A model generated the notes under the pieces. It made no database searches. It was not told the DNA's origin and worked only from the letters and a program-made list of their open reading frames with translations. A stretch of DNA of 64,000 nt from Escherichia coli (lineage in GTDB: Bacteria > Pseudomonadota > Gammaproteobacteria > Enterobacterales > Enterobacteriaceae), in the NCBI RefSeq assembly GCF_003018235.1, contig NZ_CP027437.1; one strand, given 5' to 3'. The translations under genes were made by a program, and so were the position numbers. Positions 4,154 through 6,568 of this stretch are shown here, one piece after another; the first letter of the stretch is position 1, and the number at the start of each line of letters is the position of its first letter.

Positions 4154-4464
4154 GAAATGCGGTACTGCCCCGGAGAAATCCGGGGCTGTTTCAGTTATTG
4201 AGCTGCTTGTTGATTCTGATATGCAGTAAGGAAATGTTCCGGTTTTGCCACATCACTGTTTGACAATTCATCACTGTAGGCCAGTACTTCATAGATTAAT
4301 TTCCCACCACTATTGTTGAATTCCGAATTTCATCCTGTATGACAAAAGAATGGCTGTAGGGTGGGGAAAAAACACAAAGTAAACAATAATTGACGAATAT
4401 AGCGCCACGCTGTTCGCAACCTAACCAAACAGTCACTTTCGAGCAATTTTCCTTGAAAAAGAGG

Positions 4465-4493
4465 TTGACGCTGCAAGGCTCTATACGCATAAT
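4465..4493 (+). promoter_or_regulatory. Sigma70 promoter of the tRNA operon (stringent-type)
   Basis: -35 TTGACG (4465-4470), 17-bp spacer, -10 CATAAT (4488-4493), GC-rich discriminator GCGCCCC, about 35 bp upstream of first tRNA. Confidence 0.6.
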
Positions 4494-4533
4494 GCGCCCC
4501 GCAACGCCGATAAGGTATCGCGAAAAAAAAGAT

Positions 4534-4610
4534 GGCTACGTAGCTCAGTTGGTTAGAGCACATCACTCATAATGATGGGGTCACAGGTTCGAATCCCGTC
4601 GTAGCCACCA
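4534..4610 (+). tRNA. metT: tRNA-Met (elongator, anticodon CAU)
   Basis: 77-nt cloverleaf GGCTACGTAGCTCAGTTGG...CCA; anticodon loop CTCATAA. Confidence 0.93.
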
Positions 4611-4620
4611 TCTTTTTTTT

Positions 4621-4705
4621 GCGGGAGTGGCGAAATTGGTAGACGCACCAGATTTAGGTTCTGGCGCCGCAAGGTGTGCGAGTTCAAGTCTCGCCTCCCG
4701 CACCA
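4621..4705 (+). tRNA. leuW: tRNA-Leu (anticodon UAG)
   Basis: 85-nt class II tRNA GCGGGAGTGGCGAAATTGGTAGACGC...; anticodon loop TTTAGGT; ends CCA. Confidence 0.92.
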
Positions 4706-4728
4706 TTCACCAGAAAGCGTTGTACGGA

Positions 4729-4803
4729 TGGGGTATCGCCAAGCGGTAAGGCACCGGTTTTTGATACCGGCATTCCCTGGTTCGAATCCAGGTACCCCAG
4801 CCA
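4729..4803 (+). tRNA. glnU: tRNA-Gln (anticodon UUG)
   Basis: 75-nt TGGGGTATCGCCAAGCGGTAAGG...; anticodon loop TTTTGAT; ends CCA. Confidence 0.92.
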
Positions 4804-4837
4804 TCTTCTTCGAGTAAGCGGTTCACCGCCCGGTTAT

Positions 4838-4912
4838 TGGGGTATCGCCAAGCGGTAAGGCACCGGTTTTTGATACCGGCATTCCCTGGTTCGAATCCAG
4901 GTACCCCAGCCA
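4838..4912 (+). tRNA. glnW: tRNA-Gln (anticodon UUG)
   Basis: Identical copy of the preceding tRNA-Gln(UUG). Confidence 0.92.
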
Positions 4913-4927
4913 TCGAAGAAACAATCT

Positions 4928-5004
4928 GGCTACGTAGCTCAGTTGGTTAGAGCACATCACTCATAATGATGGGGTCACAGGTTCGAATCCCGTCGTAGCC
5001 ACCA
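4928..5004 (+). tRNA. metU: tRNA-Met (elongator, anticodon CAU)
   Basis: Identical copy of the tRNA-Met at 4534..4610. Confidence 0.92.
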
Positions 5005-5051
5005 AATTCTGAATGTGTCGAATATGTTCGGCAAATTCAAAAACCAATTTG

Positions 5052-5126
5052 TTGGGGTATCGCCAAGCGGTAAGGCACCGGATTCTGATTCCGGCATTCC
5101 GAGGTTCGAATCCTCGTACCCCAGCC
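5052..5126 (+). tRNA. glnV: tRNA-Gln (anticodon CUG)
   Basis: 75-nt tRNA-Gln variant with anticodon loop TTCTGAT. Confidence 0.92.
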
Positions 5127-5164
5127 AATTTATTCAAGACGCTTACCTTGTAAGTGCACCCAGT

Positions 5165-5239
5165 TGGGGTATCGCCAAGCGGTAAGGCACCGGATTCTGA
5201 TTCCGGCATTCCGAGGTTCGAATCCTCGTACCCCAGCCA
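5165..5239 (+). tRNA. glnX: tRNA-Gln (anticodon CUG)
   Basis: Identical copy of the preceding tRNA-Gln(CUG). Confidence 0.92.
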
Positions 5240-5247
5240 CATTAAAA

Positions 5248-5272
5248 AAGCTCGCTTCGGCGAGCTTTTTGC
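5248..5272 (+). terminator. Intrinsic terminator of the tRNA operon
   Basis: AGCTCGC-TTCG-GCGAGCT hairpin followed by TTTTT. Confidence 0.8.
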
Positions 5273-5309
5273 TTTTCTGCGTATATTCAATGTCGAATGC
5301 GATGTTGAC

Positions 5310-5370
5310 ACGTCTTATCCTTCAAAGTCGGATGCGACGCTGATGCGTCTTATCCGACCTACAGTTGGCA
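5310..5370. repeat. REP/BIME-like palindromic unit cluster
   Basis: cggatgcgacgctgatgcgtcttatccgacctaca and a partial upstream copy resemble the enterobacterial REP consensus. Confidence 0.5.
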
Positions 5371-5392
5371 TGCATCCGGCAATGTTGTAAGG

Positions 5393-6568
5393 CTACAACC
5401 CTAACGCATATTTCAGCGCCTGACGTTTCAACATGCCAGCACGCTCCGCCGCCATCAAACCAAGATTACGCACAAAACGCAGCGGCGGCAGATTATTACT
5501 GAATCCGGCATAAAACAGATCCATACCACTTTGCATAATGAAGTTATCCGCCATGCGCCGCATCTGGTAACGCTTGAGGACAGGATAACTGGCCCACGCT
5601 TCGCCGTAGCTGCGAGCGTTGACCAGAACGTCAATCAGGGTATCGACATCACGATAACCAAGATTCACCCCCTGCCCCGCCAGCGGATGGATGGTGTGCG
5701 CGGCATCACCCACCAGCGCAAGCCCCGGCTGCACATACTGCAACGCATGGCGGCGTGTCAGCGGAAACGCACCAGCGGCAAGCGGTGTCACGTAACCCAG
5801 ACGCGACGGGAAATGCTTCGCGATTTCTGCCTGTAGCTGCGCCATATTCATATTCTGCAACTGGCGAATGCGCGCCGGAGAGTCATACCACACCAGCGAT
5901 GCCCAGTTATCAAACAACGGCAGAAACGCACGCGGTCCGTCCGGGGTAAATTGCTGCCAGGTGCTGTCGCCGGGATCGTTCTCACACTGGACGCTAATCA
6001 ACATACACGACTGTGCATACTGCCAGGCATGAACGCCAATTCCCGCCATCTGCCGCACCTGCGAATTTGCGCCGTCGGCACCAATCACCAGCTTCGCGCG
6101 GATCGTTTCACCGCCCTTCAGTTCCAGCTCCTGAAGATCATTATGGCGATGCAGCGCAATCAGCGAGCCTGGCACACGTAACGTTACTTTCGGATGTGCT
6201 TCCAGCGCCTGCCACAGCGCCTGTTGCAGGACTGTGTTTTCCACCATATAGCCAAGCAGCGGCAGCTTAAGTTCAGCGGCATCAAACACCACATGCGCCG
6301 TTTCCCACTCCCACGTTTCCAGTCTGCGGTAAGGATGGCAACGCATAGCCTGTACTGCATCCCAGACCCCTAACCCTTTAAGCAATGATACCGAAGCAGC
6401 GCTGATCGCCGAGATCCGCACGTCCGGTTGGCTATCAGCGACAAACGGCGCTGGTTCTGCGTGCTCGATCACCGTTACCGCAAATCCATGCTGTGCCAGC
6501 CCCAGCGCCAGTGCGCCGCCGACCATTCCTCCGCCGACAATGGCAATTTCCGTTGGTTGATTTGTCAT
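5393..6568 (-). CDS. ubiF: FAD-dependent 2-octaprenyl-3-methyl-6-methoxy-1,4-benzoquinol hydroxylase
   Basis: 391-aa protein MTNQPTEIAIVGGGMVGG (Rossmann GxGxxG); track start at 6574 is a TTG two codons upstream of the ATG. Confidence 0.92.
   Translation of the reverse strand: MTNQPTEIAIVGGGMVGGALALGLAQHGFAVTVIEHAEPAPFVADSQPDVRISAISAASVSLLKGLGVWDAVQAMRCHPYRRLETWEWETAHVVFDAAELKLPLLGYMVENTVLQQALWQALEAHPKVTLRVPGSLIALHRHNDLQELELKGGETIRAKLVIGADGANSQVRQMAGIGVHAWQYAQSCMLISVQCENDPGDSTWQQFTPDGPRAFLPLFDNWASLVWYDSPARIRQLQNMNMAQLQAEIAKHFPSRLGYVTPLAAGAFPLTRRHALQYVQPGLALVGDAAHTIHPLAGQGVNLGYRDVDTLIDVLVNARSYGEAWASYPVLKRYQMRRMADNFIMQSGMDLFYAGFSNNLPPLRFVRNLGLMAAERAGMLKRQALKYALGL

Follow-up and report, generated by a model that had tools for sequence, protein, structure and literature searches.

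What is the array of tRNA genes that occupies the asnB-ubiF interval of this Escherichia coli DNA, how is it likely to be expressed, and do its repeated members really make it prone to gain and loss of genes? The window, a stretch of 64 kb analysed as a whole, had been given a preliminary description as carrying an operon of seven tRNA genes with pairwise-identical copies, preceded by a stringent-type promoter and followed by a strong terminator. The reading that best explains the locus as a whole, and of which we are nearly certain, is the metT operon: one sigma-70 transcript, processing by RNase E and RNase P, and duplicated genes that recombine. This operon is among the best studied of all tRNA operons and has been a model substrate of RNase E and RNase P since 1981.

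ARAGORN called seven tRNA genes between 4534 and 5239, all on the plus strand and the only ones in the 64-kb window. The Rfam tRNA model returned the same seven intervals with scores of 57.6-71.1 bits, compared with a gathering score of 29. Both programs gave one gene order on one strand, Met(CAU)-Leu(UAG)-Gln(UUG)x2-Met(CAU)-Gln(CUG)x2. The genes, each identical to its K-12 counterpart, are metT for tRNA-Met(CAU) (4534-4610), leuW for tRNA-Leu(UAG) (4621-4705), glnU and glnW for tRNA-Gln(UUG) (4729-4803 and 4838-4912), metU for a second tRNA-Met(CAU) (4928-5004), and glnV and glnX for tRNA-Gln(CUG) (5053-5127 and 5165-5239). The classical supE44 (glnX44) amber suppressor maps to the last of these genes; the glnX44 allele itself was found in one laboratory strain. 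CCA is encoded in every gene, and from the first to the last the array measures 706 bp. A script comparison showed 100% identity within each of the three pairs (metT/metU, glnU/glnW and glnV/glnX), and a repeat finder recovered the same duplicate families; the Gln(UUG) and Gln(CUG) genes differ from each other at 7 of 75 positions. The proposed gene set, anticodons and order were thus confirmed, prediction failed on none of the seven genes, and the claimed identity of the copies was exact in all three pairs. The spacers between the tRNAs had been called short and A/T-rich. They are short (10, 23, 34, 15, 48 and 37 nt from 5' to 3'), and their A+T content ranges from 0.47 to 0.90 against 0.49 for the window. 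Four of the six are A/T-rich; the leuW-glnU (0.52) and glnU-glnW (0.47) spacers are on par with the window, and for these two the description did not hold. The longest spacer, between metU and glnV (5005-5052, plus strand, 48 nt, A+T 0.69), is the region reported to be cut by RNase E on the 3' side of metU. Rfam matches below the gathering score (Plastid-ycf2, rsmX, isrB, istR and naRNA4) overlapped tRNAs, the terminator or REP-like repeats and were set aside as chance or low-information matches.

A CAU anticodon does not define a tRNA by itself. ARAGORN assigns identity by anticodon alone, and CAU is common to elongator tRNA-Met, initiator tRNA-fMet and tRNA-Ile2, in which it is lysidine-modified. 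The two CAU genes could in principle therefore be initiator or Ile2 genes. Three features speak against this. In both genes position 1 pairs with position 72 (GGCTACG with CGTAGCC; G1-C72), and the anticodon stem is CATCA/TGATG and lacks the three G-C pairs of the initiator. A paired 1-72 position and the absence of these three pairs each exclude a bacterial initiator. Both genes also have the sequence of K-12 metT and metU, which encode elongator tRNA-Met (PMC6265465). This identity with characterised genes refutes an initiator or Ile2 assignment, which we regard as having almost no chance of being right; judged from their sequence, both CAU genes are elongator tRNA-Met genes.

The same comparison settles the identity of the cluster. 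In K-12 MG1655 the neighbourhood reads nagD, asnB, seven tRNAs, ubiF (on the minus strand) and miaB. The window matches this synteny, with the operon between asnB and ubiF, and its open reading frames fit the K-12 neighbours of 250, 554, 391 and 474 amino acids (the second lying within a 581-residue and the third within a 393-residue reading frame). Over 1101 bp the identity to MG1655 is 98.9%, and in the alignment the promoter, discriminator, leader, seven tRNAs and terminator are all invariant. Between promoter and terminator there are only three differences, all in spacers: a 1-nt difference in the length of a T run between metT and leuW, and one substitution and a 1-nt indel between metU and glnV. 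The others lie in flanking intergenic DNA. By these matches, which no observation contradicts, the cluster at 4534-5239 is the long-known E. coli metT operon, an ordinary one; there is nothing new here, since this is a textbook locus that the preliminary description had not recognised as such. The operon was reportedly first described and sequenced by Nakajima, Ozeki and Shimura in Cell in 1981. Around it we noted a strain-specific insertion between asnB and the promoter, and REP-like repeats downstream of the terminator.

Phages and genomic islands often carry clusters of tRNA genes, and four to six of the places hit by repeat queries were located on plasmids, which would be expected if the array were a horizontally acquired or phage-derived tRNA island and not a core operon. 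The distribution of the locus rules this out. Megablast of positions 4300-5400 gave a match in 5424 of 5426 complete E. coli genomes, with at least 80% of the query covered in one place in 5278 of them, and the annotation beneath the matches was tRNA-Leu, two tRNA-Met, four tRNA-Gln and ubiF. Every E. coli locus inspected had the asnB-ubiF position, and among the matches listed the Met-Leu-Gln backbone and the promoter were conserved across Enterobacterales. The cluster carries the sole copies of essential tRNAs, and in the one plasmid row inspected the match was confined to the downstream REP-like sequence. A mobile origin is accordingly extremely improbable, and we continue with the metT operon as a core locus.

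The operon is preceded by a promoter-like site, the sole one on the plus strand, made of TTGACG (4465-4470) and CATAAT (4488-4493) separated by 17 bp and matching the consensus at 10 of 12 positions. The -10 hexamer is followed directly by the GC-rich discriminator GCGCCCCGC (4494-4502, plus strand). The consensus scan by itself was not above chance, with one site found against 1.9 expected in shuffled sequence. What supports the promoter is its conservation between species, together with the literature. Of the 118 Enterobacterales loci among the matches listed that extended far enough upstream, 114 had exactly TTGACG-17-CATAAT, and 110 of these 114 also had GCGCCCCGC. In a conservation profile of 113 distinct sequences from the same matches, anchored on the -10 hexamer, the major-allele frequency reached 1.00 in the two hexamers and in the discriminator, against 0.69 in the 17-bp spacer and 0.65 in the upstream DNA. 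Selection on a promoter predicts precisely such invariant hexamers and discriminator against a variable spacer, and the profile is therefore far stronger evidence than the match to the consensus. Conservation extended through GCGCCCCGCAACGCCG, and the profile contained a conserved CAAACAG about 62 nt upstream of the -10 hexamer. The near-consensus promoter with a GC-rich discriminator that had been proposed is thus confirmed as a site, and its hexamers and discriminator are invariant across the 113 sequences. Upstream of the -35 hexamer lies an A/T-rich region, GCAATTTTCCTTGAAAAAGAGG (4443-4464, plus strand), whose composition and conservation make it a possible UP element. This 22-nt region has a mean A+T of 0.64 in the 113 homologous sequences, and the A-tract immediately next to the hexamer, conserved at 95% or more, could be a proximal UP element.

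Transcription probably starts near 4500, inside the discriminator. This position is 7 nt past the -10 hexamer, in agreement with the start predicted from promoter geometry, and a precursor synthesised in vitro was designed to start at window position 4500, with a forward primer beginning at CGCAACGCCGATAAGGTA (PMC3985628). With the length set by the promoter position, the primary transcript would carry a 5' leader at 4500-4533 on the plus strand, to be removed by RNase P. GC-rich discriminators are associated with stable-RNA promoters sensitive to ppGpp and DksA. The stringent-type label is a reasonable one to infer for the metT promoter from its discriminator and the conservation of that element; a literature search for direct stringent control of this promoter returned no specific report, and none on its response to Fis or an UP element. 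By analogy with rRNA and other tRNA promoters, the output of the operon is likely tied to growth rate and to ppGpp/DksA.

The strong terminator claimed downstream of the genes was also borne out. A Rho-independent terminator is found at 5245-5280 on the plus strand, in which an 11-bp stem closes a UUCG loop (5245-5270; AAAAAGCTCGC-TTCG-GCGAGCTTTTT) and is followed by the T-rich tail GCTTTTCTGC. The hairpin folds at -16.4 kcal/mol, compared with -7.7 ± 2.3 kcal/mol for shuffled sequences (z = -3.9). Among the matches listed, 76 of 102 species loci had a GC-rich hairpin with a T run behind the last tRNA, and the stems differed in sequence (for example GCTCGC/GCGAGC, GCCCGC/GCGGGC and GCCCTACT/AGTAGGGC). 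The rule behind this count, a core stem plus a T run, misses imperfect stems such as those of loci with a CGGGGCGACAGTCGAAAGACGTCGCCCCGTTTT-type hairpin, and most of the other loci had an imperfect hairpin that failed the strict stem rule. A criterion based on the minimum free energy of the whole segment, with the tail taken after the last paired base, recognised only 34 of 102 loci, as the T run is drawn into pairing with the A-tract, and it was replaced.

How the transcript is matured has been worked out in K-12, both by northern analysis and in vitro. Northern analysis by Mohanty and Kushner detected one full-length transcript with seven tRNAs and the Rho-independent terminator, which is thereby demonstrated experimentally; the terminator is removed by RNase E, with RNase G as a backup, and RNase P then separates the tRNAs (PMC2241853). 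In rnpA49 mutants, probes to the 5' non-coding region reveal precursors that retain the leader (PMC2241853). The triphosphorylated precursor is cleaved by RNase E through direct entry, with in vivo sites mapped only downstream of metU (PMC3985628), and the upstream glnW tRNA stimulates cleavage 3' of metU (PMC9841416). The sequence identity with K-12 lets this polycistronic processing be applied to the operon in the window. The sigma-70 promoter would start a single transcript of about 780 nt near 4500, comprising a leader of about 34 nt, seven tRNAs with spacers of 10-48 nt and the terminator hairpin. RNase E, backed up by RNase G, would act first, removing the terminator and cutting 3' of metU; RNase P would next cut at every mature 5' end and so separate the tRNAs; and 3' exonucleases would trim the products to the encoded CCA.

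The operon contains all genomic copies of the genes for elongator Met(CAU), Leu(UAG), Gln(UUG) and Gln(CUG) tRNAs (PMC11480407, PMC6265465), and deletion of the transcription unit is possible only with complementation (PMC11480407). As the sole source of these tRNA genes, it is essential. Its practical relevance lies in its being the only set of genes for four essential tRNA species, in the supE44 (glnX44) site and in the real copy-number polymorphism to which its internal repeats give rise.

The remaining part of the question is whether the duplicates change in number. Identical copies of 75-77 nt would be substrates for unequal homologous recombination, by which Gln copies or whole Met-Leu-Gln units could be gained or lost, in laboratory as well as natural lineages. 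The unit that duplicates from Met to Met is 394 bp, and identical direct repeats lie 109-112 bp apart. We built the junctions expected from unequal recombination and searched each in the 5426 complete E. coli genomes. A single Gln(CUG) copy was found in 152 genomes (for example the six-gene form of E2348/69) and a single Gln(UUG) copy in 71 (for example ST131 strain 751, also with six genes). Three or more Gln(UUG) copies occurred in 35 genomes and three or more Gln(CUG) copies in 29. The junction of metU with a following leuW, diagnostic of a duplicated Met-Leu-Gln unit, was present in 10 genomes, including an Origami2-DE3 assembly with eleven tRNA genes. Fusion of metT to the metU-glnV spacer, with loss of leuW, glnU and glnW, was present in 8, among them E. 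coli 536, MC1061 and HS13-1. Added together, these departures from the seven-gene form make up about 5% of the complete E. coli genomes; by subtraction the seven-gene form accounts for about 95%, a figure that further junction classes would lower.

Two of these counts depend on how the query was defined. The junction for Gln(UUG) loss was counted with short flanks. A version with 45 nt of metU in the right flank was uninformative: 5413 genomes passed 80% coverage, a meaningless count because the metU flank also matches metT and the pieces were joined. The count for Met-Leu duplication consists of the ten full-length, single-piece matches; the count at 80% coverage (5192) was inflated by the resemblance of the metT leader to the glnW-metU spacer and was discarded.

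Variation of the same kind is seen between species. An exact-pattern scan for the metT-leuW junction, with one genome per species, found at least 120 loci. The named ones among the 80 listed were all from Enterobacterales, such as Yersinia, Serratia, Pantoea, Erwinia, Photorhabdus and Edwardsiella; the exceptions were two metagenome-assembled genomes labelled just 'Proteobacteria bacterium'. According to ARAGORN, the cluster was complete in 95 loci among the matches listed. The seven-gene order was the same in 38 of these 95, a single Gln(CUG) and six genes were found in 28, a single Gln(UUG) in 8, and the rest were arranged in other ways, among them a duplication of the Met-Leu-Gln unit. The proposal that the duplicates could mediate recombination or copy-number change is thus supported by predicted junctions in 8-152 of 5426 genomes and by variable Gln copies among Enterobacterales. 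A literature search for earlier strain-level copy variation at the metT locus found nothing specific.

Identical repeats of 75-77 nt can also mislead an assembler, and the copy-number differences might be assembly artefacts and not products of recombination. Some of the data fit this explanation. Eight assemblies labelled 'complete', including those of 536 and MC1061, retain only Met-Gln(CUG) and are devoid of leuW and Gln(UUG); with no copies elsewhere, loss of leuW, glnU and glnW should be lethal, so these eight are probably collapsed, and the other variants may then include artefacts as well. Extra Gln(UUG) copies were moreover seen in laboratory strains with consecutive accessions (CP080620, CP081007-9, CP081489, CP084529). 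As a general account of the variation, misassembly is nevertheless unlikely in our view. Repeats of 75 nt are far below the length of long reads; the single-Gln(CUG) form is shared by 152 genomes and turns up in two separate records of the O127:H6 E2348/69 lineage; and many other species among the matches listed normally carry six genes or another variant form, which means that real gain and loss must have recurred. We therefore retain recombination between the duplicates as the source of the variation. Internal repeats of this kind occasionally collapse in assembly, and the tRNA inventories of 'complete' genomes can be wrong as a result.

The spacers are possibly the only part of the locus with any novelty. 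The glnV-glnX spacer contains a conserved stem-loop, CGCTTAC-CTT-GTAAGTG (5140-5156, plus strand), whose pairing is kept across Enterobacterales by compensatory changes, more clearly than in the other spacers. In this stem (5140-5146 with 5150-5156), 96.5% of cells were paired, and all 7 pairs had changed on both sides. None of 500 shuffles reached the observed percentage of pairing or the covariation score, 2 of 500 reached the number of pairs changed on both sides, and controls slid along the sequence paired at no more than 48%. A small hairpin in the metU-glnV spacer (5017-5021 with 5028-5032) showed some compensatory changes and was weaker than the glnV-glnX stem. A further hairpin in the glnU-glnW spacer, GCGG-TTCA-CCGC (4818-4829), was noticed by eye only. 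Within E. coli, the dosage of Gln tRNA genes ranges from one to three or more copies per isoacceptor. That the spacer stem-loops are functional elements of the precursor and, separately, that the Gln tRNA dosage polymorphism within the species is selected and not neutral, is a tentative idea that we think considerably more likely to be wrong than right. Possible roles of the stem-loops would be to prevent neighbouring identical tRNAs from misfolding with each other or to guide RNase P, RNase E or 3' exonucleases. Neither a function of the stem-loops nor selected Gln dosage was found in literature searches that targeted other questions.

Compared with known systems, the locus is closest to the K-12 metT operon, with which it shares gene content and order, tRNA sequences, promoter, discriminator, leader, terminator and flanking genes, and from which it differs by the three spacer differences and a few substitutions in flanking intergenic DNA. 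The promoter resembles rrn P1 and tyrT-type promoters in its near-consensus hexamers, in the GC-rich discriminator right after the -10 hexamer and in the A/T-rich upstream region; the tyrT discriminator is presumably also GCGCCCCGC. The spacer of rrn P1 is typically 16 bp, whereas that of the metT promoter is 17 bp. Recombination between tandem tRNA duplicates belongs to classical genetics, and duplicate genes for tRNA2Gln were reportedly described by Inokuchi et al. in 1979. The metT operon resembles tyrT-tyrV and the duplicate tRNA2Gln genes in having identical direct repeats, and the junctions of both deletion and amplification were found here in genomes. Evidence in the classical systems came from genetic segregation, whereas that for the metT operon comes from population genomics; the metT operon differs further in that a larger unit, the 394 bp from Met to Met, is duplicated too.

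Compensatory changes maintain the pairing of small predicted stem-loops in the spacers between the tRNA genes of the metT operon across Enterobacterales, the best case being the glnV-glnX spacer. The stem-loop there (window 5140-5156) is defined by pairing and covariation measured against shuffles and slid controls. Among the Enterobacterales loci compared, 96.5% of cells were paired and all seven pairs (7/7) had changes on both sides. None of 500 shuffles matched the observed percentage of paired cells or the covariation score, and the slid controls reached at most 48% pairing. The hairpin in the metU-glnV spacer (window 5017-5032) makes a weaker case than that in the glnV-glnX spacer; another in the glnU-glnW spacer (window 4818-4829) was noticed by eye only.

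Degenerate Gln-like segments (TGGGGTATCTCCAGGCTGTA...-type) were found in a glnV-glnX spacer of 169 nt and in a metU-glnV spacer of 77 nt, each in one other species' locus. ARAGORN made no tRNA call on the Gln-like segments of either spacer, and they look like extra gene copies in decay.

Conservation around the promoter was assessed in 113 distinct upstream sequences from the loci listed. The conserved block 3' of the -10 hexamer (window 4494-4509) runs beyond the discriminator through GCGCCCCGCAACGCCG and reaches into the first transcribed bases. The motif CAAACAG (window 4426-4432), which precedes the -10 hexamer by about 62 nt, shows at least 80-95% conservation in these sequences and could be a candidate site for Fis or another factor. 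In E. coli 24A16CRGN010 and the ST131 strain 751, an additional segment of ~430 bp separates asnB from the metT promoter; it is absent from the window (~4154-4290) and from K-12. The segment contains a 438-nt hypothetical ORF on the opposite strand (2465-2902 in L002 and 144-581 in L004, two versions of the locus in their own coordinates). On the other side of the operon, past the terminator and before ubiF ends, a repeat finder detected two REP-like direct repeats of 35 nt each, 83% identical (window 5286-5355). The Rfam family naRNA4 matched this stretch weakly (29.3 and 22.3 bits versus a gathering score of 59.5), and the match of one plasmid was confined to it.

Gene content at the locus varies among E. 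coli assemblies. E. coli Origami2-DE3 (NZ_CP084529.1) carries eleven tRNA genes at the metT locus (L005, 265-1361) in the order Met-Leu-Gln x3-Met-Leu-Gln-Met-Gln x2, an arrangement in which a Met-Leu-Gln unit is duplicated and the Gln(UUG) copies are split unevenly. Additional Gln(UUG) copies also occur in several laboratory-strain assemblies numbered with consecutive accessions; the extra copies in these and in Origami2-DE3 may be real alleles or assembly artefacts. Conversely, the asnB-ubiF interval of eight "complete" assemblies, including those of E. coli 536 (NC_008253.1), MC1061 (NZ_CP195014.1) and HS13-1, holds just tRNA-Met and one or two Gln(CUG) genes, and neither leuW nor a Gln(UUG) gene. 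These genes have their sole copies within this operon, which is essential (PMC11480407). The reduced locus most likely represents repeats collapsed during assembly.

The locus of E. coli TUM22768 shows just three tRNA-Gln genes in its RefSeq record, because the record lacks annotation for a gene with a CTA anticodon. That gene (1363-1437 in L003, the counterpart of window 5165-5239) is the seventh of the operon and bears CTA in place of CTG. It is the supE44 amber suppressor, which is now attributed to glnX and named glnX44 (PMC4444293).
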